A DNA stretch of 64,000 nucleotides from NCBI RefSeq assembly GCF_001677475.2, contig NZ_CP015229.1, one strand, 5' to 3'. The position numbers and the translations under genes are program-made. This document shows positions 8,458-61,050 of the stretch, piece by piece; position 1 is the stretch's first letter, and every line of letters starts with the position of its first letter. The DNA comes from Escherichia coli (GTDB lineage: Bacteria > Pseudomonadota > Gammaproteobacteria > Enterobacterales > Enterobacteriaceae). A model generated the notes under the pieces. The model was not told where the DNA came from. It saw only the letters and a list, made by a program, of their open reading frames with translations, and did not search any database.

Positions 8458-8631
8458 GACAAATGAAATTTTAGTAAACTCTTTAAAATCAATGGGTAAA
8501 ATAATTAACATCAAAAATAACGCGACTTTTATCACTTTTTAGTAAAGTTGCACTGGACAAAGCGTACCACAATTGGTGTACTGGTAACCGACACAGCATT
8601 TGTGTCTATTTTTCATGTAAAGGTAATTTTG

Positions 8632-8841
8632 ATGTCTAAGATTAAAGGTAACGTTAAGTGGTTTAATGAGTCCAAAGGATTCGGTTTCATTACTCCGGAA
8701 GACGGCAGCAAAGACGTGTTCGTACACTTCTCTGCAATCCAGACTAATGGTTTTAAAACTCTTGCTGAAGGTCAGCGCGTAGAGTTCGAAATCACTAACG
8801 GTGCCAAAGGCCCTTCTGCTGCAAACGTAATCGCTCTGTAA
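8632..8841 (+). CDS. cspE: cold-shock-domain protein CspE
   Basis: 69-aa ORF from ATG 8632: [33 protein letters not shown]... (RNP1/RNP2 motifs). Confidence 0.95.
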
Positions 8842-8860
8842 GATACGTCAGCAAGAATTC

Positions 8861-8890
8861 AAAACCCGCTTAATCAGCGGGTTTTTTTTG
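8861..8890. terminator. Rho-independent terminator between convergent cspE and crcB
   Basis: Hairpin cccgct/agcggg (8865..8881) followed by a T8 run; A-run on the other side. Confidence 0.7.
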
Positions 8891-34499: not shown

Positions 34500-36170
34500 T
34501 TAAGGGATCTCAATAGCCAAATAATCGCTCGCCCGTCGCCGAACTTCATCGACGCGGGCCATATCGTTTGACTGCAACGCCGCATCAAAATCGGTGATCA
34601 CCCGGCCGATCTCTTCTCGCTCGTCACCCAGCGCCCGCGCCCACAACTCTTCCAGTTTTGCTTTAAAGGTACGGTTGATGAGCATATCGCGCGGATAAAT
34701 TTTCAATGCGGATAACCGCGTCCGACTCTCTTCAATCTGCTGTGCGCTCAATGTTACAGGACTGTGATTAATGACTCTGGACTTAACGCTGCCGTCTTCC
34801 AGAAGCACGTCAACTTCAAGCAACCCGTTGATATCATAACTAAAGCGAATATCAATCGACTGATAAGCCCCGGTTTTCTTCAACGGCACATCGAAGGATT
34901 CCACCAGAATGTTATTTTTAACTTTGTGGTTTTCTCCCTGATAGACGTTAACCGTAATTGAATCCTGTTCCGGGTGCATGGTCGAGTAAGTTTCTACACG
35001 CGACACCGGTACAGTGGTGTTTCGTTCAATAATCGGCGAGAAAATGCCGGAAACGCCCTGGCGGTTAACTTCAACACCCAACGAGTAAGGGCAAATATCA
35101 GTGAGGATCACCTCTTCAATATCTTCACTGCGTAAGCGGCAGGCGGCCTGGATTGCTGCGCCCAGCGCGACAATGGTGCTCGGGTCGTAACTTTGATATG
35201 GTAATTTGCCAAACAGACGTACGGCGATTCGCTGCACCAGCGGCATTTGTGATGCGCCGCCAACCAGCACCAGACTGTCGATTTGACTTGGCTTCAGACG
35301 TGCATCGCGCAACGCCTGTTCAATCGGTACTCGCAAGCGATTGAGCAGCGGCAACCACAAATCTTCCAGTTCGTTTTCGTAAAATTCGCACTTACGCGTT
35401 TCTTCCTGATACTGCCAGCTAATTTGCAGCGGTAATTGATTGCCGCATTTTGCCGCTTCCACGCTGGTGTACAGGGCTGCCAGCTCACTTTCGTTGAGCA
35501 TGTTTTTAGCCACTGCGGCGCGTTTTAAAACTTCATCCACCAGCATATGAGTAAAATCTTCGCCGCCAAGAAAGTTGTCGCCAGCGGAGGCGTGAACTTC
35601 AATCACCGGCGTGGCGTATTCGAGCACCGTGACGTCAAACGTGCCGCCACCGAGATCAAAAACCAGCGAGCGGGTATTTTGTTGCGTATGCAGGCCATAT
35701 GCCATCGCAGCTGCTGTGGGTTCATTAATTAAGCGTACCGCATTTAACCCGGCTAACTCCGCTGCTAAACGGGTATGCTTGCGTTGTTCATCGCTGAAAT
35801 AAGCCGGAACGGAGATCACCACATCTTTAATCGGACGTTGCAGAAATTCTTCGGCATCTTCTTTTAATGAGCGTAATACCAAAGAGGACAGTTCTGGCGC
35901 GTTAAATGTATCGCTGCCTAACCGCCAGTTGGTATTACTGCCCATTGCACGTTTAAATAACGCTGCCGTTTTATCCGGATGCGAAGTGCGCCGTGATACA
36001 GCCGGTTTTCCGACTAAAATATGATTATTTTCATCCATGCTAATTATGGATGGTGTTAAATATTCACCGAACTTATTTGGAATTAATTGCGCGGCACCGT
36101 CTTTCCAGACGGCAATTAAACTATTGGTAGTACCGAGATCGATACCAATGGCGAGTTCTGCATTATCCAT
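34500..36170 (-). CDS. hscC: specialised Hsp70-family chaperone HscC
   Basis: 556-aa ORF MDNAELAIGIDLGTTNSLIAVWKDG... with Hsp70 ATPase signatures (DLGGGTFD). Confidence 0.9.
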   Translation of the reverse strand: MDNAELAIGIDLGTTNSLIAVWKDGAAQLIPNKFGEYLTPSIISMDENNHILVGKPAVSRRTSHPDKTAALFKRAMGSNTNWRLGSDTFNAPELSSLVLRSLKEDAEEFLQRPIKDVVISVPAYFSDEQRKHTRLAAELAGLNAVRLINEPTAAAMAYGLHTQQNTRSLVFDLGGGTFDVTVLEYATPVIEVHASAGDNFLGGEDFTHMLVDEVLKRAAVAKNMLNESELAALYTSVEAAKCGNQLPLQISWQYQEETRKCEFYENELEDLWLPLLNRLRVPIEQALRDARLKPSQIDSLVLVGGASQMPLVQRIAVRLFGKLPYQSYDPSTIVALGAAIQAACRLRSEDIEEVILTDICPYSLGVEVNRQGVSGIFSPIIERNTTVPVSRVETYSTMHPEQDSITVNVYQGENHKVKNNILVESFDVPLKKTGAYQSIDIRFSYDINGLLEVDVLLEDGSVKSRVINHSPVTLSAQQIEESRTRLSALKIYPRDMLINRTFKAKLEELWARALGDEREEIGRVITDFDAALQSNDMARVDEVRRRASDYLAIEIP

Positions 36171-36253
36171 TGCATTTATATCTTGAAAGAAAAAGAGATA
36201 AACAGATTAAGACCACCCGGGTAACGCGTGGTGATCTTAATCAATGACGTGTG

Positions 36254-37189
36254 TTAAGCGTAAAATTTCAGACGATCAGCCAGTAAATCAACAAAGCCCT
36301 GACGATCAACATCGACCATTACAGTGGCATTCGGTTTATTGCCGGTCAGATAATAATAATCAACAACCGTCATACCCTGGGTATATTTCCCTTGTGTTTC
36401 CACGCCAACCCAGCGCTCAACAGTGGTAAACAACTCGGGTTTTAACAGCCAGGCGATGGTGCATGGGTCATGTAGCGGTGGGCCGACAAAGCCCCATTTT
36501 TCGTCTTTGTGATATTCGAGGAAGAAATCCAGCAGTTCGGCAACAATGGTTGAAACAGGGTTGCCAATGGCGCGGAAACGCTCGGTGTCCTCAACGTGAA
36601 TTTGTGCTTTGTGAGTAACATCCAGACCGGCCATCACCACCGGGATCCCTGACTGGAAGACAATTTCTGCCGCTTCCGGGTCAACGTAAATATTAAATTC
36701 AGCCGCAGGCGTCCAGTTACCAAGCCCCATTGCGCCGCCCATAATCACGATACGGGCAATTTTGCTATGCAGTTCCGGATGGCTATTGAGCAGCAAGGCA
36801 ACGTTAGTTTGCGGTCCGGTAGACACAATCGTGACAGGTTCCGCACTTTCACGTAGCGTTTTCGCCATCAGCTCCACCGCCGTACACTTTTGCGGTGCAA
36901 ACGTCGGTTCCGGTAATGCCGGGCCGTCGAGACCGCTTTCGCCGTGCACATTGTCCGCGATAATCAACTCACGCATTAACGGTTTTACTGCGCCGCCGGC
37001 TACCGGAATATCGGTGCGATTAAGCAATGTCAGCATACGCAGAACATTGCGTAAGGTTTTTTCTGGAGTCTGGTTTCCGGCGGAAGACGTAATTGCTTTG
37101 ACATCAAGCTCTGGTGAGGCGAGGGCGAGAACTATTGCGATAGCGTCATCATGACCTGGGTCGCAATCTAACAGAATTGGCAGTGCCAT
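36254..37189 (-). CDS. rihA: pyrimidine-specific ribonucleoside hydrolase RihA
   Basis: ORF 36254..37222; start at internal Met gives 311 aa [25 protein letters not shown]... (DxDxxxDD motif). Confidence 0.9.
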
Positions 37190-37306
37190 TGTTGCTCCTT
37201 GTTGTGTGCTTCTTTGCGACAAGGGTACCGCCAGGATGTAACAGATACGAGGAGCGAAACGATAAAGCGTGAGATGGCGCGCACTTGGGTATGCGCGCCA
37301 GAGTGA

Positions 37307-38032
37307 TTAATGCAGGATTTTCGCGAGGAAGTCTTTTGCGCGGTCCGATTTCGGATCATCGAAGAAAGCGTCTTTCGGCGAGTCTTCGACAATTTTACCC
37401 TCGTCCATAAAGATCACCCGATTCGCCACTTTACGGGCAAAGCCCATTTCGTGGGTCACCACCATCATGGTCATTCCTTCATTCGCCAGTTCGACCATTA
37501 CGTCCAGCACTTCGTTGATCATCTCCGGATCCAGCGCCGATGTCGGTTCGTCGAACAGCATCGCGATAGGATCCATGCACAATGCGCGAGCGATCGCCAC
37601 ACGCTGCTGCTGACCGCCGGAAAGCTGCGCCGGAAACTTATTGGCATGTGCGGAAAGCCCGACGCGCTCCAGCAATTTCAATGCTTTTTCACGAGCGGGT
37701 GCTTTATCGCGTTTAAGCACTTTCACCTGCGCCAGGGTCAGGTTTTCAATAATCGACAAATGGGGGAACAACTCGAAATGCTGGAACACCATTCCCACAC
37801 GGGAACGCAGCTTCGCCAGATCGGTTTTCTTATCGTTCACCACGATGCCATCGACGGTGATTTCACCTTGCTGCACCGGTTCGAGGCCGTTAACGGTTTT
37901 AATCAGCGTTGATTTACCGGAGCCAGATGGGCCGCAAACCACCACCACTTCGCCTTTTTTCACTTCCGTTGAGCAGTCGGTCAGCACCTGAAAGTGACCA
38001 TACCATTTTGAAACATTTTTCAGGGTAATCAT
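37307..38032 (-). CDS. gltL: glutamate/aspartate ABC transporter ATP-binding protein
   Basis: 241-aa ORF with Walker [10 protein letters not shown] and LSGGQQQR signature. Confidence 0.95.
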
Positions 38033-38706
38033 TATGCTGTCCTTCTTTTCAAGTAGCTGACCAACAACGACGCGCTAAGGCTAATAACGAAATAAACAAA
38101 TCCGGCAAACAGGATCATCTCAACCTGCGTACCATCACGCTCACCAATGGTTGAGGCGGTACGGAAGAAATCGGCCAGAGATAACACATACACCAGTGAG
38201 GTATCCTGAAACAGTACGATGCCCTGAGTGAGCAGCAGCGGCACCATCGCGCGGAACGCCTGCGGCAGAATAATCAGTTTCATCGACTGCCAGTGGGTCA
38301 TCCCCAACGCCAGCGCGGCGCTCGACTGACCACGAGAAATACTTTGAATACCGGCACGGATAATCTCTGAATAGTAGGCCGCTTCAAACATCGAAAACGC
38401 CACCATCGCCGAAATTAAACGGATATCATTTTTTGGTGATAATCCCAGCACGTTTTGCAGAAAACCCGGCACGATCAGGTAAAACCACAGCAAAACCATA
38501 ACTAAAGGAATCGAGCGGAATACGTTAACGTAGGCTTTGGCAAACCACGCTACGGGCGCAAAGCTGGACAAGCGCATCACCGCCAGCATGGTGCCCCACA
38601 AAATACCAATCACGACTGCCGTGACGGTGATTTTCAGGGTGATCACCAGCCCGTCGAGCAGATATGGCAGGGAAGGAACAATGGAACTCCAGTCAAACTC
38701 GTACAT
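38032..38706 (-). CDS. gltK: glutamate/aspartate ABC transporter permease
   Basis: 224-aa membrane ORF; 1-nt overlaps with gltL and gltJ. Confidence 0.9.
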
Positions 38707-39446
38707 TATTTGCCCCCCATGTTGCCGGGCAGGCGAACTTTACGTTCAACCAGCGTCATCACCAGCATGATAAAAGCGTTAATCAATACATACGCCAGCG
38801 TAATCGCGGTAAACGACTCCCAGGCGTGAGCCGAGTAGTCGAGCAATTTACCCGCCTGCGCTGCCATATCTACCAGACCGATGGTCGAGGCGATGGCGGA
38901 GTTTTTCACCAGGTTCATCATCTCTGAGGTCATCGGCGGGACGATAACGCGATAAGCATTAGGCAGCAGTACGTAGCGGTAAGCCTGCGGTAGCGTCAGA
39001 CCCATCGCCAGCGCGGCATTCTTCTGCCCACGCGGCAGCGACTGAATAGCGGCGCGTACCTGTTCGCAAACACGGGCGGCGGTAAACAGTCCAAGGCAGA
39101 GCATGGATGAAAGGAAAAACTGAATATTGGGATCCAGCTCGGCCTTAAACCACATGCCGATTTTCTCTGGCAGCAACTCCGGGATCACCAGATACCAGGT
39201 AAAGAATTGCACAATCAACGGCACGTTGCGGAACAGTTCGACATACAACGTACCCAGACCGGAGAGAAAACGGTTTGGAACGGTACGTAAAATGCCGAAA
39301 AATGAACCGACGAGGAAAGCGATAATCCAGGCGCAGATCGACAAAGCGATCGTCACCTGAAAACCACTCCAGATCCAACCAAGATAGGTGGTGTTGCCGA
39401 ACGGGGCTTGTTGTAAAAAAATACCCCAGTTCCAGTCTATAGACAT
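38706..39446 (-). CDS. gltJ: glutamate/aspartate ABC transporter permease
   Basis: 246-aa membrane [29 protein letters not shown]... Confidence 0.9.
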
Positions 39447-39457
39447 AAATCTACTCC

Positions 39458-39620
39458 AGAAAAAAGAGGGTAGCAGCGTTAACTGCTACCCTCGAAGATT
39501 GTTACCCAGCGTATTGCGGTTTTCAGGCCCGATGGGGAACGACCATCAGGCGTATAGTCTGTCCGTGCTACGTAACAATCGAGAGGGCTGGAATTTCCGC
39601 CCCTGGTTCTTGTAATTAGT
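39458..39620 (-). ncRNA. sroC: SroC-like sRNA in the gltI-gltJ spacer (GcvB sponge in E. coli)
   Basis: 169-bp spacer; minus-strand hairpin gagggtagcag/ctgctaccctc (39466..39493) followed by a U-run ending about 12 nt before the gltJ start; ends set from position in spacer and recalled ~163-nt length. Confidence 0.55.
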
Positions 39621-40524
39621 TCAGTGCCTTGTCATTCGGTTCTTTGAACAGAGCTTTCATTTCGTCTGACAGTTCGAAATTCATGTTCAGGTTTTTCGGC
39701 GGAATTGGATTTTTGAACCACTTATCAAACCATTTTTCCGCTTCGCCGGAGGTCTGCACCTGCGCGATGGTGTCATCCATCAGCTTTTTGAACTGCGGAT
39801 CATCTTTACGCAACATACAACCGTAGGCTTCCTGAGACTGCGGCTTGCCGACGATTTCCCAGTTGTCTGGTTTCTTCGCTTTCGCACGTTCACCGGCCAG
39901 CAGAGCGTCATCCATCATAAAGGCAACGGCACGACCGCTTTCCAGGGTGCGGAAAGAGTCACCGTGATCTTTGGCGCTGATGATGCGCATATTCATTTTT
40001 TGCTCTTCATTCAATTTGTTGAGCAAAACTTCAGAGGTAGTGCCGGAAGTGACGACTACGGCTTTGCCTTTCAGGTCGGCAAAATCTTTGATATCGCCGC
40101 CCTTTTTAGTCAGAAGGCGCGTACCGACCACGAAAATAGTGTCAGAGAAAGCCGCCTGTTTCTGGCGTTCGACGTTATTGGTGGTAGAACCACATTCAAA
40201 ATCGAAAGTGCCGTTTTGCAGCAGAGGAATACGGTTTTGTGAGGTGATCGGAATCAGTTTCACCTGCAAGTCCGGTTTGTTGAGTTTCTTTTTCACTGCT
40301 TCAACAATGGCGTTGGAGTAATCCTGCGAGTAACCCACCACTTTTTGCTGATTGTCGTAATAAGAGAAAGGTACTGAAGATTCACGGTGACCGACGACAA
40401 TCACACCGTTTTTGGCGATTTTGTCCAGCGTACTGCCCGCTGCCGGGGCGGCGTCATCTGCCTGTGCCAGTCCTGCGGAAAGCGCCAGGGCCAGGATTGC
40501 TGTGGCAGGTTTACGTAATTGCAT
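39616..40524 (-). CDS. gltI: glutamate/aspartate periplasmic binding protein
   Basis: ORF 39616..40599; start at ATG 40522..40524 with AAGGAG upstream gives 302 aa MQLRKPATAILALALSAGLAQADDAAP... Confidence 0.9.
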   Translation of the reverse strand: MQLRKPATAILALALSAGLAQADDAAPAAGSTLDKIAKNGVIVVGHRESSVPFSYYDNQQKVVGYSQDYSNAIVEAVKKKLNKPDLQVKLIPITSQNRIPLLQNGTFDFECGSTTNNVERQKQAAFSDTIFVVGTRLLTKKGGDIKDFADLKGKAVVVTSGTTSEVLLNKLNEEQKMNMRIISAKDHGDSFRTLESGRAVAFMMDDALLAGERAKAKKPDNWEIVGKPQSQEAYGCMLRKDDPQFKKLMDDTIAQVQTSGEAEKWFDKWFKNPIPPKNLNMNFELSDEMKALFKEPNDKALN

Positions 40525-40842
40525 ATCCAACTCCTTTATCTTCTGCGTTAAGAACGCATGGATACCTGTTGTGAGTGTTTGTGTTGTTATCATCTGCAAC
40601 TTTATTGTGCAGTGTTGTGCCTGTTAGGTAACATTTAGTTTGGCTAAATGTAAAGATATTGCTGTTTTATTGTTTGTTTTTGCGAGTTGCGCCGCACCAT
40701 TCCGAAGCAAAATTCTTAAAATGCACTCTTTTGGTGCTACCCGTGGATTGCTGTGGTGCAACCGGGTTGTACTGATGCTGGTTCACGCTTTGCCTTGTAT
40801 AACAAAGCAATAGATGTGCCAAAGTTGGATAGGGGAATTTTG

Positions 40843-40880
40843 TTATCCGGATAACGCACTGATGCCGCATCCGGTGAGCG
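40843..40880. repeat. REP-like palindromic element in the lnt-gltI spacer
   Basis: gttatccggataacgcactgatgccgcatccggtgagcg; GCCGGATGCGGCG-type palindrome. Confidence 0.5.
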
Positions 40881-40920
40881 TGCCGAAATACGGGATGTAT
40901 TCCGGCACGATAAGAAGGGA

Positions 40921-42459
40921 TTATTTACGTCGTTGACGCAGACTCATCAGCACAGCAGCAAAACCAAACAGCGCCGTAAGCACCCACAGCGGCCAGTTGC
41001 CGGTACGTGCGTACGGTGTGAGTCCGGTGGTCGGCGTCACGTTAGTGGTTAACACCTCGCGGGTGAACTGCGGGATCATCGCCTGAATCTCACCCTGCGG
41101 ACCAATCACCGCCGTAATGCCGTTGTTGGTGCTACGCAGCAGTGGGCGCGCCAGCTCCAGCGCACGCATTCGCGCCATCTGGAAGTGTTGCCATGGACCA
41201 ATAGATTTACCAAACCACGCATCGTTGGAGATAGTCAGCAGGTAGTCGGTATCCGGGCGGAAGTTATCACGCACTTGCTCGCCGAGAATGATCTCGTAGC
41301 AAATAGCCGCAGTAAGCTCAATACCGTTTACCGACAGCGGCGGCTGGATATATGGCCCACGGCTGAACGACGACATCGGTAGATCAAAGAACGGTGCTAA
41401 CGGACGCAGAATCGACTCCAGCGGGACAAACTCGCCAAACGGCACCAGATGGTTTTTGTTATAGCGATCGGCTGATTCGTAGCTGTACGGCGCACCTTTA
41501 CCCAGCGTGATGATGGTGTTGTAGGTATCGTAGCGGTTCTGCTTATTGAGACGTGCGTCAACAATCCCGGTTACCAGCGAGCTACCTTTATCGCGCAACT
41601 CACCGTCCAGTGCTTTGAGGAACGGTTGCTGATTAATTTCCAGATCGGTTATCGCCGACTCCGGCCAGATAATCAACGATGATTTGCCCATCAGCGGTGC
41701 CGTTGCGTTGTAGTAAATCTTCAGCGTATTAAGAAGCTGGTCTCCGTCCCATTTCAGTGATTGCGGAATATCGCCCTGAACCATCGAAACCTGAATGGTT
41801 TTCTCCGGTTGCGGGGTAAACCACTGGATGTAACGCAGCGGGAAGGGAAGGGCGAACAGCACGACGGCCACCACCATCGGACGCCAGTTGCGTTTGACCA
41901 ACGCCAGTGCCAGCAGGCCGCTAACCATCATTAGCAGGAAGTTAATGGCTTCCACGCCCATTATCGGTGCCAGCCCTTTTAACGGGCCATCAATCTGGCT
42001 ATAGCCGAACTGTAACCACGGGAAACCAGTCAGCACCCAACCGCGCAGAAACTCGGTCACTTGCCAGAGAGCAGGGGCGGCAATCGCCACGCGCAGCCAG
42101 GTGGTTTTCGGCCACAGACGCGACAGCACGCCAGCAAACAGTCCGGTATACAGCGACAAATACGCCGCCAGCAGCACCACCAGGAAGATGTTAACCGGGC
42201 CAGGCATTCCGCCAAAGGTCGCGATGCTGACATAGACCCAGTTAATACCGCTGCCAAAGAGGCCAAATCCCCAGCAAAAGCCAATAGCGGCAGACTGGAG
42301 TGGACGGCGGTTAAAGGTCAGCGCCTGAAGCCCCATCAGCGAAATAATCGCCGCAGGCCAGACGTCGTAAGGAGAGAAGGCCAGCGTTCCGCAGGCACCG
42401 AATAATAACGCCAGCAGCAGGCGAATGCGCTGGCGTTCAATTAATGAGGCAAAAGCCAT
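40921..42459 (-). CDS. lnt: apolipoprotein N-acyltransferase
   Basis: 512-aa [31 protein letters not shown]... with C-terminal CN-hydrolase domain. Confidence 0.95.
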
Positions 42460-42483
42460 GTAGTTATCTATCCAGTTTCGGTT

Positions 42484-43362
42484 TTATTCATCCAGCTTCG
42501 GCTGGGGTGAGTCATCCGGGATTTTGACATGAACCTGAATAATACGCCGACTGTCGGCCATCGCCACTTTGAACTGGTAACCGTCGATGTCGATGGTTTC
42601 GCCACGCGCCGGAAGATGCCCAAATGCCTGCATCACCAGACCACCGATAGTGTCAACCTCTTCATCGCTAAAGTGGGTGCCGAACGCTTCGTTGAAGTCT
42701 TCAATGGAAGCCAGTGCGCGCACGGTCCAGGTATGACGGCTCAGCTGACGGAAGTCGATATCATCTTCTTCGTCATACTCGTCTTCAATCTCACCAACAA
42801 TCAGTTCCAGGATGTCTTCAATGGTCACCAGACCGGAAACCCCACCGAATTCGTCAATGACGATCGCCATGTGGTAACGCTGAGAGCGAAACTCTTTCAG
42901 CATCCGGTCTACGCGCTTACTTTCAGGAACGACAACCGCCTGACGTAACACTTTGTCCATGCTGAAGGCTTCAGCATCGCTGCGCATAAACGGCAGCAAG
43001 TCTTTCGCCATCAGAATCCCTTCAATGTGATCTTTGTCTTCGCTAATCACCGGGAAACGTGAGTGGGCGGACTCGATGATGACATCAAGGCATTCGTCCA
43101 GCGTCTGGTTGCGTTTCAGGGTAATCATCTGGGAGCGGGGGATCATGATGTCGCGGACGCGTTGGTCTGCGATGTCCATCACCCCTTCGAGCATATCGCG
43201 CGTATCTTCGTCGATAAGGTCGTTCTGCCCGGAATCACGGATCAGCGCCAGCAGTTCGTCACGGTTTTTCGGTTCACCGTGGAAAAGTTGGCTGAGTAAC
43301 AGGGAGAAAAATCCCTTCTTGTTGCTTATCGTGTCACTACTGTGTGAATTGTCGTCGCTCAT
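42484..43362 (-). CDS. corC: CBS/CorC-domain metal-efflux accessory protein CorC (YbeX)
   Basis: 292-aa [37 protein letters not shown]... Confidence 0.9.
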
Positions 43363-43451
43363 GGCGTCGTATGGGTTCTCATGTTAGTTAATCAAAACGC
43401 CGTCGTTAATCACCAACGGCGGGGACATCTGCCAGTCAAATGCCTGGCAAA

Positions 43452-43919
43452 TTATTCTTTCTCGGCAATGTACGGATCCTCATAGCCCAGAGCAAGCATA
43501 ATCTCTGTTTCGAGGGCTTCCATTTCTTCTGCTTCGTCATCTTCGATGTGATCGTAACCTAACAAATGCAGACTGCCGTGCACCACCATATGCGCCCAGT
43601 GCGCCTCCAGTGGTTTGCCTTGCTCCTGTGCTTCCTTCTCAACCACCTGACGGCAGATAACCAGATCGCCCAGTAGCGACATTTCCATGCCAGGCGGTAC
43701 TTCAAACGGGAAGGAGAGCACGTTGGTCGGCTTATCCTTACCGCGATAGGTCAGATTCAGACTGTGGCTTTCGGCGGTATCGACCACGCGAATCGTCACT
43801 TCCGATTCTTCCTGAAACTGCGGGATCACCGCATTCAGCCATGTCTGAAACTGGCTCTCTTCCGGTAACCCGGAATTATCTTCACATGCCAGTTGTAAAT
43901 CGAGGATCACCTGACTCAT
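43452..43919 (-). CDS. ybeY: endoribonuclease YbeY (16S rRNA 3' maturation)
   Basis: 155-aa ORF with HxxxHxxGYDH metal-binding motif ([11 protein letters not shown]). Confidence 0.95.
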
Positions 43920-44995
43920 TTTTGTTCCTGTTCTTCGCGCTTGCGTTCTGCTGCCAGCGCCGCTTTACGTTTTTGTTCGGCTTCTTCCCAGGCTTCATAA
44001 GCGTTAACGATACGCGCCACCACCGGGTGACGAACCACGTCTTCGCTGTGGAAGAAGTTAAAGCTGATCTCTTCGACATCGGCCAGCACTTCGATGGCAT
44101 GACGCAAACCTGATTTAGTATTACGCGGCAGGTCGATCTGTGTGACGTCGCCGGTGATAACCGCTTTTGAGTTAAAACCGATACGGGTCAGGAACATCTT
44201 CATCTGTTCGATGGTAGTGTTCTGGCTCTCATCGAGAATGATAAATGCGTCGTTCAGCGTACGACCACGCATATAGGCCAGCGGTGCGACTTCAATAACG
44301 TTGCGCTCAATCAGTTTCTCAACTTTCTCAAAGCCCAGCATTTCAAACAGCGCGTCGTACAGCGGGCGCAAATACGGGTCTACTTTCTGGCTTAAATCGC
44401 CAGGCAGGAAGCCCAGTTTCTCACCGGCTTCTACCGCCGGACGAGTCAGCAGAATACGGCGAATTTCCTGACGCTCCAGGGCATCAACTGCCGCAGCCAC
44501 TGCCAGGTAGGTTTTACCCGTACCCGCCGGGCCAACGCCGAAGGTGATGTCATGGTCGAGAATATTGGCGATGTACTGCGCCTGGTTTGGCGTGCGCGGC
44601 TTGATTACGCCGCGTTTGGTTTTGATATTGACCGCTTTACCATACTCCGGCACGCTCTCCGCGCTTTGCTCCAGTACCCGCGCTTCTTTAATCGCAAGGT
44701 GGATCTGTTCCGGTTCGATATCCTGAATCTGACCGCGCATCGGGGCTGTATCGACATACAGGCTACGCAGAATGTCTGCCGCAGCGGTGACGCAAATCGG
44801 ACGGCCGGTCAGTTTAAAGTGGTTATCGCGGCGATTGATCTCGATGCCGAGACGGCGTTCGAGTTGTTTGATGTTGTCATCAAACGGGCCGCACAGGCTC
44901 AACAGACGCGCATTGTCTGCTGGCTCCAGGGTGATTTCGCGAGTGTCTATGTTCAAACCGTTCCTCTTATCTGTATGCCGCCGGAAGCTGAACAT
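43916..44995 (-). CDS. ybeZ: PhoH-like ATPase YbeZ
   Basis: 359-aa ORF with Walker A GPAGTGKT; 4-nt overlap with ybeY; a start 39 nt further in (giving a 346-aa product) is possible. Confidence 0.85.
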
Positions 44996-48007: not shown

Positions 48008-48082
48008 TGGCTGGGGTACGAGGATTCGAACCTCGGAATGCCGGAATCAGAATCCGGTGCCTTACCGCTTGGCGATACCCCA
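48008..48082 (-). tRNA. glnX: tRNA-Gln (anticodon CUG)
   Basis: 75-nt minus-strand sequence UGGGGUAUCGCCAAGCGGUAAGGCACCGGAUUCUGAUUCCGG...CCA; anticodon loop UUCUGAU. Confidence 0.9.
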
Positions 48083-48119
48083 ACTGGGTGCACTTACGAT
48101 GTAAGCGTCTTGAATAAAT

Positions 48120-48194
48120 TGGCTGGGGTACGAGGATTCGAACCTCGGAATGCCGGAATCAGAATCCGGTGCCTTACCGCTTGGCGATACCCCA
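48120..48194 (-). tRNA. glnV: tRNA-Gln (anticodon CUG), tandem copy
   Basis: Identical 75-nt sequence to 48008..48082. Confidence 0.9.
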
Positions 48195-48242
48195 ACAAAT
48201 TGGTTTGTGAATTTGCCGAACTTATTCGACACATTCAGAATT

Positions 48243-48319
48243 TGGTGGCTACGACGGGATTCGAACCTGTGACCCCATCATTATGAGTGATGTGCTCTAA
48301 CCAACTGAGCTACGTAGCC
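48243..48319 (-). tRNA. metU: elongator tRNA-Met (anticodon CAU)
   Basis: 77 nt GGCUACGUAGCUCAGUUGGUUAGAGCACAUCACUCAUAAUGAUGGGGUCACAGGUUCGAAUCCCGUCGUAGCCACCA. Confidence 0.9.
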
Positions 48320-48334
48320 AGATTGTTTCTTCGA

Positions 48335-48409
48335 TGGCTGGGGTACCTGGATTCGAACCAGGGAATGCCGGTATCAAAAACCGGTGCCTTACCGCTTGGC
48401 GATACCCCA
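48335..48409 (-). tRNA. glnW: tRNA-Gln (anticodon UUG)
   Basis: 75 nt; anticodon loop UUUUGAU. Confidence 0.9.
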
Positions 48410-48443
48410 ATAACCGGGCGGTGAACCGCTTACTCGAAGAAGA

Positions 48444-48518
48444 TGGCTGGGGTACCTGGATTCGAACCAGGGAATGCCGGTATCAAAAACCGGTGCCTTA
48501 CCGCTTGGCGATACCCCA
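48444..48518 (-). tRNA. glnU: tRNA-Gln (anticodon UUG), tandem copy
   Basis: Identical 75-nt sequence to 48335..48409. Confidence 0.9.
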
Positions 48519-48541
48519 TCCGTACAACGCTTTCTGGTGAA

Positions 48542-48626
48542 TGGTGCGGGAGGCGAGACTTGAACTCGCACACCTTGCGGCGCCAGAACCTAAATCTGGT
48601 GCGTCTACCAATTTCGCCACTCCCGC
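48542..48626 (-). tRNA. leuW: tRNA-Leu (anticodon UAG)
   Basis: 85 nt GCGGGAGUGGCGAAAUUGGUAGACGCACCAGAUUUAGGUUCUGG... with long variable arm. Confidence 0.9.
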
Positions 48627-48634
48627 AAAAAAGA

Positions 48635-48711
48635 TGGTGGCTACGACGGGATTCGAACCTGTGACCCCATCATTATGAGTGATGTGCTCTAACCAACTGA
48701 GCTACGTAGCC
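48635..48711 (-). tRNA. metT: elongator tRNA-Met (anticodon CAU), second copy
   Basis: Identical 77-nt sequence to 48243..48319. Confidence 0.9.
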
Positions 48712-51811: not shown

Positions 51812-53032
51812 TCAATTTTCCAGCAAATGCTGGAGCAAAATACCGTTGAGCATGGCGCGTTTTACCAGCGCAAAAGCGCCGATTGCCGAGCGGTGATCCA
51901 ACTCAGAACGTACCACCGGTAGATTAGTACGAAACGCCTTCAGCGCCTGGGTATTAATGCAGCTTTCAATAGCAGGGAGCAGCACTTTATCGGCTTCGGT
52001 GATTTCTCCAGCAATAACAATTTTTTGCGGATTAAATAAGTTGATAGCAATGGCGATGGTTTTACCCAGATGACGACCGACATATTCAATCACTTCCGAG
52101 GCCAGGCTATCGCCTTTGTTCGCGGCTTTGCAGATAGTTTTGATGGTGCAGTCGTCCAGTGGCACACGGCTCTGGTAGCCCTGCTTTAATAAATTCAACA
52201 CCCGTTGTTCAATGGCAGCGTTGGCAGCGATAGTTTCCAGGCAGCCGAAGTTGCCACAGTGGCAGCGTTCTCCCAGCGGTTCAACCTGAATATGACCAAT
52301 TTCACCGACGTTGCCGTTGCGGCCGATAAAAATGCGCCCGTTAGAGATGATTCCAGCCCCCGTTCCGCGATGCACGCGCACCAGAATGGAGTCTTCGCAA
52401 TCCTGACTTGCACCGAAGTAGTGCTCTGCCAGCGCCAGACTGCGGATATCGTGGCCGACAAAACAGGTCACTTTAAAACGCTCTTCCAATGCTTCTACCA
52501 GCCCCCAGTTTTCTACCTGAATATGCGGCATGTAATGAATTTTGCCGCTGTCCGGGTCAACAAGTCCTGGCAGGATCACGGAAATGGCGATCAGCTCGCG
52601 CAGCTTGCGCTGGTAGCTATCAATAAACTGAGCAATGGCGTTAAGCAGGGCATGTTCCAGCGTCTGCTGGGTACGTTCCGGCAGCGGGTAATGTTCTTCT
52701 GCCAGCACTTTGCTACTGAGATCAAACAAGGTGATGGTGGCGTCGTGACGACCAAGCCGTACGCCGATTGCGTGGAAATTGCGGGTTTCGGTGACGATGG
52801 AGATAGCGCGGCGGCCCCCGGTGGAGGCCTGCTGATCAACTTCTTTGATCAGCCCGCGTTCGATAAGCTGACGCGTAATTTTGGTTACGCTGGCGGGGGC
52901 AAGCTGACTTTGCTCGGCAATCTGAATCCGCGAGATTGGCCCATACTGGTCAATCAGGCGATAAACCGCCGCGCTGTTAAGCTGTTTTACGAGATCAACA
53001 TTACCTATCTGAGCTTGTCCGCCTGGTGTCAT
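51812..53032 (-). CDS. nagC: N-acetylglucosamine repressor NagC (ROK family)
   Basis: 406-aa ORF with N-terminal HTH and ROK Cys/His cluster (CHCGNFGCLE). Confidence 0.95.
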   Translation of the reverse strand: MTPGGQAQIGNVDLVKQLNSAAVYRLIDQYGPISRIQIAEQSQLAPASVTKITRQLIERGLIKEVDQQASTGGRRAISIVTETRNFHAIGVRLGRHDATITLFDLSSKVLAEEHYPLPERTQQTLEHALLNAIAQFIDSYQRKLRELIAISVILPGLVDPDSGKIHYMPHIQVENWGLVEALEERFKVTCFVGHDIRSLALAEHYFGASQDCEDSILVRVHRGTGAGIISNGRIFIGRNGNVGEIGHIQVEPLGERCHCGNFGCLETIAANAAIEQRVLNLLKQGYQSRVPLDDCTIKTICKAANKGDSLASEVIEYVGRHLGKTIAIAINLFNPQKIVIAGEITEADKVLLPAIESCINTQALKAFRTNLPVVRSELDHRSAIGAFALVKRAMLNGILLQHLLEN

Positions 53033-53040
53033 ACTTTCTC

Positions 53041-55049
<2,009 letters not shown>

Positions 55050-55381
55050 TATTCACCTCAATAAGTAAAATGTAAGCCGTTGGCGGATTAGGCATCTTTA
55101 AGCGTAACCTAGATTTGCGCAGACAGGCGTCAATCCGACCTGATTTTTTGAATGATAAAATAAGTTTTCTGGTTTAGCCAGTAAAAGGGAGTGATGATAA
55201 CGATATTTGGTGACAAAACTCACAAAAGACACGCGTTTAATTTGCGATACGAATTAAATTTTCACACACTCTGTAGCAGATGATCTAACAATCTGATTAC
55301 AGAACATCGGCAGTACAATTTGCAGCAAAATAAAAATACGGCTTTAAACGAGCCAAATAGGGTTCTCGTAGGGGGAATAAG
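55050..55381. promoter_or_regulatory. divergent nagB / nagE promoter region (NagC and CRP control in E. coli)
   Basis: 332-bp AT-rich spacer between divergent nagB and nagE; individual operator sites not resolved here. Confidence 0.5.
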
Positions 55382-57328
55382 ATGAATATTTTAGGTTTTT
55401 TCCAGCGACTCGGTAGGGCGTTACAGCTCCCTATCGCGGTGCTGCCGGTGGCGGCGCTGTTGCTGCGATTCGGTCAGCCAGATTTACTTAACGTTGCGTT
55501 TATTGCCCAGGCGGGCGGTGCGATTTTTGATAACCTCGCATTAATCTTCGCCATCGGTGTGGCATCCAGCTGGTCGAAAGACAGCGCAGGTGCGGCGGCG
55601 CTGGCGGGTGCGGTAGGTTACTTTGTGTTAACCAAAGCGATGGTGACCATCAACCCAGAAATTAACATGGGTGTACTGGCGGGTATCATTACCGGTCTGG
55701 TTGGTGGCGCAGCTTATAACCGTTGGTCCGATATTAAACTGCCGGACTTCCTGAGTTTCTTCGGCGGCAAACGCTTTGTGCCGATTGCCACCGGCTTCTT
55801 CTGCCTGGTGCTGGCGGCCATTTTTGGTTACGTCTGGCCGCCGGTACAGCACGCTATCCATGCAGGCGGCGAGTGGATCGTTTCTGCGGGCGCGCTGGGT
55901 TCCGGTATCTTTGGTTTCATCAACCGTCTGCTTATCCCAACCGGTCTGCATCAGGTACTGAACACCATCGCCTGGTTCCAGATTGGTGAATTCACCAACG
56001 CGGCGGGTACGGTTTTCCACGGTGACATCAACCGCTTCTATGCCGGTGACGGCACCGCGGGGATGTTCATGTCCGGCTTCTTCCCGATCATGATGTTCGG
56101 TCTGCCGGGTGCGGCGCTGGCGATGTACTTTGCAGCACCGAAAGAGCGTCGTCCGATGGTTGGCGGTATGCTGCTTTCTGTTGCTGTTACTGCGTTCCTG
56201 ACCGGTGTGACTGAGCCGCTGGAATTCCTGTTCATGTTCCTTGCGCCGCTGCTGTACCTCCTGCACGCACTGCTGACCGGTATCAGCCTGTTTGTGGCAA
56301 CGCTGCTGGGTATCCACGCGGGCTTCTCCTTCTCTGCGGGGGCTATCGACTACGCGTTGATGTATAACCTGCCGGCCGCCAGCCAGAACGTCTGGATGCT
56401 GCTGGTGATGGGGGTTGTCTTCTTCGCTATCTACTTCGTGGTGTTCAGTTTGGTTATCCGCATGTTCAACCTGAAAACGCCGGGTCGTGAAGATAAAGAA
56501 GACGAGATCGTTACTGAAGAGGCTAACAGCAATACTGAAGAAGGTCTCAATCAACTGGCAACCAACTATATTGCTGCGGTTGGCGGTACTGACAACCTGA
56601 AAGCAATTGACGCCTGTATTACTCGTCTGCGCCTGACCGTGGTTGACTCGGCTCGCGTCAACGATGCGATGTGTAAACGGCTGGGTGCTTCTGGGGTAGT
56701 GAAACTGAACAAACAGACTATTCAGGTGATTGTTGGCGCGAAAGCGGAATCCATTGGCGATGCAATGAAGAAAGTTGTTGCCCGTGGTCCGGTAGCCGCT
56801 GCGTCAGCTGAAACTGCGCCTGCAACTGCCGCGCCTGTAGCAAAACCGCAGGCTGTACCAAACGCGGTGTCTATCGCGGAGCTGGTATCGCCGATTACCG
56901 GTGATGTTGTGGCACTGGATCAGGTTCCTGACGAAGCATTCGCCAGCAAAGCGGTGGGTGACGGTGTGGCGGTGAAACCGACAGATAAAATCGTCGTATC
57001 ACCAGCCGCAGGGACAATCGTGAAAATCTTCAATACCAACCACGCGTTCTGCCTGGAAACCGAAAAAGGCGCGGAGATCGTCGTCCATATGGGTATCGAC
57101 ACCGTAGCGCTGGAAGGTAAAGGCTTTAAACGTCTGGTGGAAGAGGGCGCGCAAGTAAGCGCAGGGCAACCGATTCTGGAAATGGATCTGGATTATCTGA
57201 ACGAAAACGCCCGCTCGATGATTAGCCCGGTGGTTTGCAGCAATATCGACGATTTCAGCGGCTTGATCATTAAAGCTCAGGGCCATGTCGTGGCGGGTCA
57301 AACGCCGCTGTATGAAATCAAAAAGTAA
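55382..57328 (+). CDS. nagE: PTS N-acetylglucosamine-specific EIICBA component
   Basis: 648-aa ORF MNILGFFQRLGRALQLPIAVLPVAALLLRFG...; EIIB Cys (ITRLRL) and C-terminal EIIA domain. Confidence 0.95.
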   Translation: MNILGFFQRLGRALQLPIAVLPVAALLLRFGQPDLLNVAFIAQAGGAIFDNLALIFAIGVASSWSKDSAGAAALAGAVGYFVLTKAMVTINPEINMGVLAGIITGLVGGAAYNRWSDIKLPDFLSFFGGKRFVPIATGFFCLVLAAIFGYVWPPVQHAIHAGGEWIVSAGALGSGIFGFINRLLIPTGLHQVLNTIAWFQIGEFTNAAGTVFHGDINRFYAGDGTAGMFMSGFFPIMMFGLPGAALAMYFAAPKERRPMVGGMLLSVAVTAFLTGVTEPLEFLFMFLAPLLYLLHALLTGISLFVATLLGIHAGFSFSAGAIDYALMYNLPAASQNVWMLLVMGVVFFAIYFVVFSLVIRMFNLKTPGREDKEDEIVTEEANSNTEEGLNQLATNYIAAVGGTDNLKAIDACITRLRLTVVDSARVNDAMCKRLGASGVVKLNKQTIQVIVGAKAESIGDAMKKVVARGPVAAASAETAPATAAPVAKPQAVPNAVSIAELVSPITGDVVALDQVPDEAFASKAVGDGVAVKPTDKIVVSPAAGTIVKIFNTNHAFCLETEKGAEIVVHMGIDTVALEGKGFKRLVEEGAQVSAGQPILEMDLDYLNENARSMISPVVCSNIDDFSGLIIKAQGHVVAGQTPLYEIKK

Positions 57329-57375
57329 TCTGCTTTATGCCTGATGCGACGCTTGAGCGTCGCATCCAACAATGA

Positions 57376-57411
57376 CAAGCGGTGGAGATCTTCTCTGCCG
57401 CTTTTTTTTTC
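57376..57411 (+). terminator. Rho-independent terminator after nagE
   Basis: GC hairpin followed by T9 (gccgcttttttttt); a REP-like palindrome gcctgatgcgacgcttgagcgtcgcatc lies just upstream. Confidence 0.65.
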
Positions 57412-57530
57412 ATCAATCATCCCCATAATCTCAGTGAGATTTTCGATTTTCACTAACTAACAGTTGTCAGCCTGTCCCGCTTATAAGATCATACGCCGTT
57501 ATACGTTGTTTACGCTTTGAGGAATCCACG

Positions 57531-59195
57531 ATGAGTGAGGCAGAAGCCCGCCCGACTAACTTTATTCGTCAGATCATCGATGAAGATCTGGCCAGTGGTA
57601 AGCACACCACAGTACACACCCGTTTCCCGCCGGAGCCGAATGGCTATCTGCATATTGGCCATGCGAAATCTATCTGCCTGAACTTCGGGATCGCCCAGGA
57701 CTATAAAGGCCAGTGCAACCTGCGTTTCGACGACACTAACCCGGTAAAAGAAGATATCGAGTATGTTGAGTCGATCAAAAACGACGTTGAGTGGTTAGGT
57801 TTTCACTGGTCTGGTAACGTCCGTTACTCCTCCGATTATTTTGATCAGCTCCACGCCTATGCGATCGAACTGATCAATAAAGGCCTGGCGTACGTTGATG
57901 AACTGACACCGGAACAGATCCGCGAATACCGCGGCACCCTGACGCAGCCGGGTAAAAACAGCCCGTACCGCGACCGCAGCGTTGAAGAGAACCTGGCGCT
58001 GTTCGAAAAAATGCGTACCGGTGGTTTTGAAGAAGGTAAAGCCTGCCTGCGTGCGAAAATCGACATGGCGTCGCCATTTATCGTAATGCGCGATCCGGTG
58101 CTGTACCGCATTAAATTTGCTGAACACCACCAGACTGGCAACAAGTGGTGCATCTACCCGATGTACGACTTCACCCATTGCATCAGCGATGCGCTGGAAG
58201 GTATTACGCACTCTCTGTGTACGCTTGAGTTCCAGGACAACCGTCGCCTGTACGATTGGGTGCTGGACAACATCACCATTCCTGTTCACCCGCGCCAGTA
58301 CGAATTCTCGCGCCTGAATCTGGAATACACTGTGATGTCCAAGCGTAAGCTGAACCTGCTGGTGACCGACAAGCACGTTGAAGGCTGGGATGACCCGCGT
58401 ATGCCGACCATTTCCGGTCTGCGTCGTCGTGGTTACACTGCGGCTTCTATTCGTGAGTTCTGCAAACGCATCGGCGTGACCAAGCAGGACAACACCATTG
58501 AAATGGCGTCGCTGGAATCCTGCATCCGTGAAGATCTCAACGAAAACGCCCCGCGCGCAATGGCGGTTATCGATCCGGTGAAACTGGTTATCGAAAACTA
58601 TCAGGGCGAAGGCGAAATGGTCACCATGCCGAACCATCCGAACAAACCGGAAATGGGGAGCCGTCAGGTGCCGTTTAGCGGTGAGATTTGGATCGATCGC
58701 GCCGATTTCCGCGAAGAAGCTAACAAGCAGTACAAACGTCTGGTGCTGGGTAAAGAAGTGCGTCTGCGTAATGCTTACGTCATTAAGGCTGAACGCGTGG
58801 AGAAAGATGCCGAAGGCAATATCACCACCATCTTCTGTACTTATGACGCCGACACCTTAAGCAAAGATCCGGCAGATGGTCGTAAAGTGAAAGGCGTTAT
58901 TCACTGGGTGAGCGCGGCACATGCGCTGCCGGTTGAAATCCGTTTGTATGATCGTCTGTTCAGCGTGCCTAACCCAGGTGCTGCGGATGATTTCCTGTCG
59001 GTGATTAACCCGGAATCGCTGGTGATCAAACAGGGCTTTGCTGAACCGTCGCTGAAAGATGCGGTTGCGGGTAAAGCATTCCAGTTTGAGCGTGAAGGTT
59101 ACTTCTGCCTCGACAGCCGCCATTCCACTGCCGAAAAACCGGTATTTAACCGCACCGTTGGGCTGCGTGATACCTGGGCGAAAGTAGGCGAGTAA
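57531..59195 (+). CDS. glnS: glutamine--tRNA ligase
   Basis: 554-aa [50 protein letters not shown]... (HIGH and VMSKR motifs). Confidence 0.95.
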
Positions 59196-59261
59196 TTTTA
59201 AGTTCTACCAGGCCGGGTGAGGCGTTTACGCCGCATCCGGCATGAAACATGCAAACAATCC

Positions 59262-59290
59262 AAAACGCCGCGCTCTGCGGCGTTTTTTTC
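59262..59290 (+). terminator. Rho-independent terminator after glnS
   Basis: aacgccgcgctctgcggcgttttttt; preceded by a REP-like unit ggcgtttacgccgcatccggca. Confidence 0.7.
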
Positions 59291-59643
59291 TGCTTTTCTT
59301 CGCGAATTAATTCCGCTTCGCAATTTATCCATAAAACAAATTTAAAATCACAAGCCATAATTAAATAAAATGTAACCGCTTTCATCTTGCTGGAATTTCA
59401 CGCTTTTATTCTTCTGCAAGCCTTTCAACTGCAAACTTAAGCCTTGTAACAAAAATCATCAAAATATGTGCGGTTGCTCATGTTCTTACATTCTGGTTAC
59501 AGAAAGAGATTGATAATTCGCGTCGCGAAAAATAGTCTGTTCCTGTAGTCAGCGAGACTTTTCTCAACGCTACTTTTTTAATTTTTATTTTTTTCGCTGT
59601 TCACCTTTGGTGCAGCAATTTATACGTCAAAGAGGATTAACCC

Positions 59644-61050
59644 ATGCGTACGTTTAGTGGCAAACGTAGTACGCTGGCGCTGGCTATCGCCGGTGTTACA
59701 GCAATGTCGGGCTTTATGGCAATGCCGGAGGCTCGCGCCGAAGGATTCATCGACGATTCAACCTTAACCGGCGGTATCTATTACTGGCAGCGTGAACGCG
59801 ACCGTAAAGATGTTACCGACGGCGACAAATACAAAACCAACCTTTCTCACTCCACCTGGAACGCCAACCTCGATTTTCAGTCTGGTTATGCTGCTGATAT
59901 GTTCGGCCTTGATATTGCTGCGTTTACGGCGATTGAAATGGCGGAAAACGGTGACAGCTCTCACCCGAACGAAATCGCGTTTTCAAAAAGCAATAAAGCC
60001 TATGACGAAGACTGGTCCGGCGACAAAAGCGGTATAAGCCTGTATAAAGCAGCGGCCAAATTTAAATACGGTCCGGTGTGGGCGAGGGCAGGTTACATTC
60101 AGCCAACTGGTCAGACGCTGTTAGCGCCGCACTGGAGCTTCATGCCGGGTACTTATCAGGGGGCGGAAGCCGGGGCGAATTTTGATTACGGCGATGCTGG
60201 TGCGTTGAGTTTCTCCTACATGTGGACCAACGAATACAAAGCACCGTGGCATCTGGAAATGGATGAGTTTTATCAGAACGATAAAACCACCAAAGTTGAT
60301 TATCTGCACTCCCTTGGGGCGAAATACGACTTCAAAAATAACTTCGTACTGGAAGCGGCATTTGGTCAGGCGGAAGGGTATATCGATCAATATTTTGCCA
60401 AAGCCAGCTACAAATTTGATATCGCCGGTAGCCCGTTAACCACCAGCTACCAGTTCTATGGTACGCGCGATAAAGTTGACGATCGCAGCGTCAACGATCT
60501 TTATGACGGCACCGCCTGGCTGCAAGCGTTGACCTTTGGTTACCGGGCGGCTGACGTAGTGGATTTGCGCCTCGAAGGCACCTGGGTTAAGGCTGACGGT
60601 CAGCAGGGATACTTCCTGCAACGTATGACTCCAACCTACGCTTCCTCGAACGGTCGCCTGGATATCTGGTGGGATAACCGTTCCGACTTCAACGCTAACG
60701 GCGAAAAAGCGGTCTTCTTCGGTGCGATGTATGACCTGAAAAACTGGAATCTTCCAGGCTTCGCCATCGGCGCTTCCTACGTTTACGCATGGGATGCTAA
60801 ACCTGCGACCTGGCAGAGCAATCCGGATGCGTACTACGACAAAAACCGGACTATTGAAGAGTCTGCCTACAGCCTGGATGCGGTGTACACCATTCAGGAC
60901 GGTCGCGCCAAAGGCACGATGTTCAAACTGCACTTCACCGAATACGACAACCACTCCGACATCCCAAGCTGGGGCGGTGGTTACGGCAACATCTTCCAGG
61001 ATGAGCGTGACGTGAAATTTATGGTAATCGCACCATTCACCATCTTCTGA
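59644..61050 (+). CDS. chiP: chitoporin ChiP (YbfM), outer-membrane porin
   Basis: 468-aa ORF with signal peptide [32 protein letters not shown] and C-terminal aromatic residue (F). Confidence 0.9.

Follow-up and report, generated by a model that had tools for sequence, protein, structure and literature searches.

The gltI-gltJ spacer of this E. coli-like genome contains the small RNA SroC. Judged from its sequence, the element is the already known RNA, annotated in K-12 and represented by an Rfam family, and not a new one. It is almost certain that the locus operates as one scheme, in which leaky termination, release of SroC by RNase E, sponging of GcvB and setting of the GltI:GltJKL ratio are combined. 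gltI and gltJ are glutamate/aspartate transporter genes; SroC was discovered in 2003 and characterised mechanistically in 2015. The discovery value of the case is small, as SroC is already annotated and characterised. It does show that the first-stage reader can correctly identify a processed sRNA from inside an operon in raw sequence. What was determined here is the identity of the RNA, its anatomy, its complementarity and the conservation of its structure; for termination, processing, Hfq dependence and GcvB decay, we rely on published experiments with identical or near-identical sequences. None of the comparisons made revealed a feature that speaks against the SroC reading. The following elements of the locus are numbered along the window, which is the whole 64,000-nt stretch of DNA that was analysed.

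37307-39446, minus strand: gltJ, gltK and gltL (permeases and ATPase), from the ORF list and the RefSeq annotation of the homologous region
39454-39457, minus strand: Shine-Dalgarno sequence GGAG of gltJ, 7 nt 5' of the ATG and adjoining the SroC 3' end, read directly from the sequence
39458-39620, minus strand: SroC sRNA, 163 nt, derived from the 3' end of gltI together with the spacer to gltJ, identified by Rfam RF00369 and identity to K-12
39460-39465, minus strand: U6 tract of the terminator, read directly from the sequence
39466-39493, minus strand: Rho-independent terminator hairpin, SroC nt 128-155, with the loop UAAC, from folding and the sequence
39497-39580, minus strand: stem-loop 2 (SL2), nt 41-124, a long branched helix with both GcvB-binding sites, from the minimum-free-energy (MFE) fold and covariation
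39536-39542, minus strand: BS1, UCGUUCC, SroC nt 79-85 in the SL2 apical loop, an exact 7-nt complement of K-12 GcvB nt 13-19 (SL1)
39557-39564, minus strand: BS2, GGACAGAC, SroC nt 57-64, an exact 8-nt complement of K-12 GcvB nt 156-163 (R3/SL4)
39584-39603, minus strand: stem-loop 1, SroC nt 18-37, from the MFE fold and the alignment
39604-39620, minus strand: A-rich unpaired 5' leader, 17 nt, which holds the gltI stop codon (39618-39616), from the MFE fold
39616-40524, minus strand: gltI, from the ORF list and the RefSeq annotation of the homologous region
40559-40624, minus strand: gltI 5' UTR, in which a C/A-rich tract, with its core at 40567-40590, is complementary to the R1 seed of GcvB

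The ORF list and the sequence place both genes on the minus strand, with the TAA stop codon of gltI at 39618-39616 and the ATG of gltJ starting at 39446. The spacer therefore spans 39447-39615 and measures 169 bp, the length stated in the original prediction. That prediction also located SroC inside the spacer, which holds for most of the RNA; the 5' end (39620) lies 2 nt within the gltI reading frame, so that SroC extends beyond the spacer, and the end at 39620 that had been given already includes this part.

The Rfam sroC model (RF00369) matches 39620-39458 (-) without truncation (model positions 1-163 of 163; 174.8 bits, E 7.4e-37), against a gathering score of 45 bits. All 163 nt of the RNA are identical to K-12 sroC (b4763), which is annotated as an ncRNA at 686681-686843 between gltJ and gltI, and the alignment to K-12 MG1655 (NC_000913.3) is identical at 191 of 191 bases across 39440-39630. 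The original claim that the spacer yields SroC, which had been made to depend on a search with the SroC covariance model and on alignment to K-12 sroC, thus came through both. The RNA lies at the 3' end of gltI and in the spacer to gltJ, on the strand of the operon. A 281-nt region occurs with at least 95% identity in 5421 of 5426 complete E. coli genomes, flanked by gltI and gltJ in every case.

Between the window and K-12, no difference was observed over 390 nt (39262-39651), which comprise sroC together with the start of gltJ and the end of gltI. In the 4.6 kb around the locus, 127 of 4628 positions differ (2.7%), mostly at third codon positions. The invariance of 39262-39651 next to diverged flanks would fit strong purifying selection on the RNA. 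The window copy shares its position, strand, terminator, BS1/BS2 and predicted fold with K-12 SroC (RF00369, b4763) and with the Salmonella SroC of Miyakoshi, Chao and Vogel (2015). Compared with K-12, the RNA is without difference, whereas the flanks differ by the 2.7% given above and no IS5 is located upstream of gltI: the IS5D found between gltI and lnt in K-12 is missing from 40525-40920 of the window, and the K-12 alignment ends at 40628. Near 40850-40900, the intergenic region includes what we take to be a REP-like palindrome (GCCGGATGCGGC...TTATCCGG). The best identity of the window to the 5,426 complete RefSeq E. coli genomes is 98.3% for 36000-44000 and 98.5% for 52000-60000; three other species-level Escherichia genomes (E. 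whittamii, sp. E1V33 and sp. MOD1-EC7003) reach ~95% identity, and E. albertii reaches 92%. By these identities, the lineage of the window appears to be one of E. coli without a representative among the complete genomes.

SroC (163 nt) is predicted to fold at -66.3 kcal/mol (z -6.5) into four parts, namely the 5' leader, stem-loop 1, the branched stem-loop 2 and the terminator. The 5' end at the leader would be generated by RNase E, as published (PMC4474525). The residues G61, G65 and G84 probed in Salmonella (PMC4474525) correspond to G58, G62 and G81 in the window copy; from this numbering, the mature 5' end may lie ~3 nt 5' of the K-12 annotation.

The conservation of this fold was examined in an alignment. 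A pattern scan with one genome per species yielded 63 Enterobacteriaceae loci, and the 56 full-length copies among them were combined with the window in an alignment of 57 Enterobacteriaceae sequences (55 distinct). The scan pattern required BS1, BS2 and their neighbours, and the invariance of BS1/BS2 in this sample carries no weight. The MFE structure of the window leaves 91.5% of the alignment cells paired, compared with 38-50% when the partners are slid. Double-sided changes were observed in 172 cells and affect 14 pairs, versus 60 ± 7 cells in shuffles and 6-56 with slid partners. Compensatory changes occur in five of the nine pairs of the SL2 apical stem (98% paired), and in 6 of 13 pairs of the SL2 basal stem according to the MFE structure or 4 of 7 according to the Rfam-like structure (~90% paired). 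Stem-loop 1 is paired in 84-87% of the cells of the 55 distinct sequences and exhibits compensatory changes in two pairs. SroC has a conserved secondary structure that is supported by covariation.

Several Citrobacter, Phytobacter and Kosakonia genomes carry a ~120-nt insertion, which we take to be an ERIC-like element, between the gltI stop codon and stem-loop 1 (locus L022:6459-6590; also L017, L028, L023, L057 and L064). With the insertion, the usual site of RNase E processing comes to lie farther from the body of the sRNA. In four other loci (L013, L039, L055 and L056), the sequence past the SL2 apical stem is wholly divergent; ERIC-like sequence follows the apical stem in L013 and L039, and neither a terminator nor a gltJ start is at the expected place. 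These loci may represent truncated SroC variants, similar to the one described in Yersinia (PMC4474525). L039 (CACSKA010000002.1) is labelled Chryseobacterium sp. 18061 and has a gltI-SroC core of the Enterobacteriaceae type; a wrong label or contamination of this assembly is probable.

The terminator reads GAGGGUAGCAGU-UAAC-GCUGCUACCCUC at 39493-39466 (-). The original prediction of a minus-strand hairpin with an 11-bp stem and a U-run is accurate: the stem consists of 11 Watson-Crick pairs, to which one loop-closing U-G pair is added to give 12 pairs (7 G-C), and the U6 tract follows, which we presume to be the Hfq-binding 3' tail of SroC. The hairpin has a predicted energy of -22.7 kcal/mol, compared with -8.0 ± 2.4 kcal/mol for 200 dinucleotide shuffles (z -6.1), none of which equalled it. 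A 12-pair stem, the UAAC loop and U6 together constitute a Rho-independent 3' end in silico. This G+C-rich hairpin directly before a U-tract lies inside the operon, as is found for a leaky terminator. From the last U of the run, 13 nt remain to the gltJ ATG, and 11 nt remain from the annotated RNA end at 39458, which brackets the 'about 12 nt' of the original prediction; the GGAG Shine-Dalgarno sequence (39457-39454) sits between the U-run and the ATG.

In published work, a leaky Rho-independent terminator ends the short gltI mRNA, the full gltIJKL mRNA is made from the same promoter, and the SroC terminator holds GltI in excess over GltJKL (PMC4474525). The attenuation between gltI and gltJKL that had been proposed for the window is thus also the published view (Miyakoshi et al.). 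A single promoter serves gltIJKL (PMC4474525). The 13-nt gap is too small for a promoter, so that gltJKL would be expressed only through read-through of the SroC terminator. A promoter scan found no sigma-70-like site in 39000-41000, although the scan is insensitive and missed the gltI promoter as well.

The terminator core GGGUAG/CUACCC is unchanged in the 55 distinct sequences. Relative to Salmonella and Citrobacter, the Escherichia terminator has 7 nt inserted in the loop and C in place of T at the base of the stem; together, these two changes extend the stem from about 7-9 to 12 pairs. The predicted energy is -22.7 kcal/mol here, -20.3 kcal/mol in another Escherichia copy and -13.7 kcal/mol in the Salmonella/Citrobacter form. 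The Kluyvera terminator has a separate extension (-20 to -21 kcal/mol). The comparison shows that the terminator, as predicted from the folds, was strengthened independently in Escherichia and in Kluyvera. The RF00369 consensus leaves the terminator helix unannotated (window 39458-39500, model 132-163), pairs model nt 12-14 with 160-162, and forces the Escherichia 7-nt loop insertion into an ungapped, mismatched 3' alignment; the shorter form of the terminator was apparently the basis of the model.

Both GcvB-binding sites are present in SL2, BS2 in an internal bulge and BS1 in the loop, at positions that agree with the published probing (PMC4474525). Their complementarity was computed against K-12 GcvB, as the gcvB gene of the studied genome lies outside the window. 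BS1 faces GGAACGA (GcvB nt 13-19) and BS2 faces GUCUGUCC (nt 156-163), with local duplex energies of -10.9 and -15.3 kcal/mol, respectively. The two sites are 14 nt apart in SroC, which is the published spacing: Miyakoshi et al. (2015, PMC4474525) described BS1/BS2 as 7 or 8 nt long, 14 nt apart, and protecting G14, G18 and G156 of GcvB. The sites on the GcvB side are ~137 nt apart (PMC10250213). The statement in the original prediction that SroC sponges GcvB therefore agrees both with published work (PMC4474525) and with the complementarity of the two sites to K-12 GcvB.

The pairing sites were derived from exact complementary k-mers and local duplexes. A full-length SroC-GcvB RNAduplex calculation was discarded; it returned a meaningless 150-nt duplex, as the method ignores intramolecular structure. 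SroC and K-12 GcvB share 6 complementary 7-mers versus 1.9 expected (p about 0.04), a mild enrichment. Two further matches of 7-8 nt (SroC 101-108 with GcvB 189-196, and SroC 146-152 with GcvB 114-120) fall inside stable stems of both RNAs and were set aside as probable chance. Upstream of gltI, the 5' UTR tract pairs with GcvB nt 56-100 at -43.1 kcal/mol, compared with -28.3 ± 3.4 kcal/mol for shuffles. gltI is a published GcvB target (PMC4474525), and the tract provides the second arm of the published feed-forward loop.

These elements suggest the following course of events. Transcription from the gltI promoter would mostly end at the 39493-39460 terminator and yield a short gltI-sroC mRNA, and a minority of transcripts would continue past the terminator into gltJKL. 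Hfq-guided RNase E in its 5'-end-dependent mode would cut near the gltI stop codon and release a very stable SroC of ~163 nt. Trimming of the short gltI mRNA to SroC by RNase E in this manner has been described (PMC4474525); the processed 5' end carries a 5' monophosphate and arises without a promoter of its own in Salmonella (PMC4474525) and in E. coli (PMC10250213), and SroC is stable for >16 min whatever its 5' phosphorylation state (PMC10250213). BS1 in the SL2 loop and BS2 in the internal bulge would then pair with GcvB, and this pairing would lead to RNase E-dependent decay of GcvB. Hfq-dependent SroC-GcvB pairing is known to trigger such decay (PMC4474525), and in stationary-phase E. 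coli the GcvB-SroC hybrid accounts for up to about 70% of GcvB reads (PMC9299463). From the identity of its sequence, we infer that the SroC of the window destabilises GcvB in an Hfq-dependent manner. Loss of GcvB would de-repress the amino-acid transport and metabolism regulon, including gltI through the C/A-rich site in its 5' UTR, and the same SroC terminator would set the GltI:GltJKL ratio. According to a review (PMC9438474), SroC also acts as a sponge of MgrR and represses fliE and flhBAE.

A simpler account would grant the locus an intercistronic terminator or attenuator alone, which lowers gltJKL relative to gltI and releases an inert by-product. The hairpin and U-tract 13 nt ahead of gltJ agree with it, as do the typical over-expression of the binding protein in ABC-transporter operons and the published role of the leaky terminator. 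That role is real, yet it coexists with the sponge function and hence provides no alternative. The terminator alone leaves unexplained the ~125 nt that precede it, with their conserved and covarying structure, and the two exact complements of K-12 GcvB. Published sroC deletions lift the GcvB half-life from 1.7 min in the presence of SroC to >15 min (PMC4474525), and Salmonella point mutations in BS1/BS2 stabilise GcvB with termination intact (PMC4474525). We regard the inert by-product as very improbable.

Even less can be said for two other accounts, which we hold to be practically negligible. The spacer might encode a small protein, and the mechanical ORF list does contain a 75-aa plus-strand ORF at 39388-39615, antisense to SroC; this ORF overlaps the gltJ start on the opposite strand, and it was rejected as a gene on account of the indels in homologous spacers, the lengths of which are not divisible by three (7 nt for the loop insertion, 1-2 nt for several gaps), and of the substitutions, which are paired across stems with no codon-position pattern. 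The hairpin might also be a REP/BIME-type or other dispersed repeat that shields the gltI mRNA from 3' exonucleases, stabilising hairpins being common after the first gene of ABC-transporter operons. The window (64 kb) contains its sequence only once, even when 3 mismatches are tolerated, and the hairpin is therefore no repeat element; REP-type identity was rejected on this count. In addition, a canonical U-tract lies directly 3' of the hairpin, the hairpin belongs to the full-length Rfam sroC match, and Miyakoshi et al. expressly contrast the gltI-gltJ locus with the stabiliser model (PMC4474525). The reading of the spacer as a terminated and processed SroC is preferred over all three.

As a processed sRNA, SroC resembles CpxQ, SdhX, NarS, MalH and OppZ, which are also made by RNase E from a parent mRNA, share its Rho-independent terminator and carry a 5' monophosphate (PMC10250213, PMC9438474). 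Unlike in these RNAs, whose terminators stand at the operon end, the terminator of SroC is operon-internal. The main target of SroC is the sRNA that it sponges, whereas the other five target mRNA. The locus is likewise similar to the leaky intercistronic terminators of ABC-transporter operons, in which a stem-loop and a U-tract follow the binding-protein gene and less permease and ATPase is expressed. It is distinguished from a plain leaky terminator of this type by the co-option of the terminated 3' fragment as a trans-acting regulator.

The comparative alignment offers a small lead on the cause of the terminator leakiness. When the nascent RNA is folded to nt 131-143, the MFE structure pairs UCUCG (nt 37-41, 39584-39580) with CGAGG (nt 127-131, 39494-39490). 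This helix, which closes SL2 in the Rfam consensus structure, occupies the lowest four pairs of the terminator 5' arm, those beside the U-tract. It may delay the closure of the terminator base, and termination would then need quick strand displacement. In the full RNA, the terminator is favoured by about 10 kcal/mol and the pairing probability of the competitor at equilibrium is <0.001, so that the competing helix remains a kinetic speculation. On the alignment, it is 96% paired with 0 double-sided changes and a C-A mismatch in 11 Klebsiella/Raoultella-type sequences; both strands are near-invariant across genera, and covariation therefore speaks neither for nor against it. We consider it unlikely that this conserved helix sets the leakiness of the SroC terminator. 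If it did, any factor that stabilises or opens SL2 could adjust SroC output as well as gltJKL read-through, and Hfq, or GcvB bound to BS1/BS2 of the nascent RNA, would be the candidate modulators. Regulated termination has been raised as a possibility with the element unnamed, and conserved nucleotides outside the GcvB sites have been noted (Miyakoshi et al., PMC4474525).

Two other parts of the window gave matches to known RNAs. The Rfam cspA thermoregulator model (RF01766) matches 8531-8889 (+) with 123 bits against a gathering score of 78 and with many non-canonical pairs; from its map position, this is probably the mRNA of a csp paralogue and not cspA. Seven tRNA genes, including two pairs identical by score, lie within about 700 bp at 48011-48711 (-) and presumably form the gln/met/leu tRNA operon.
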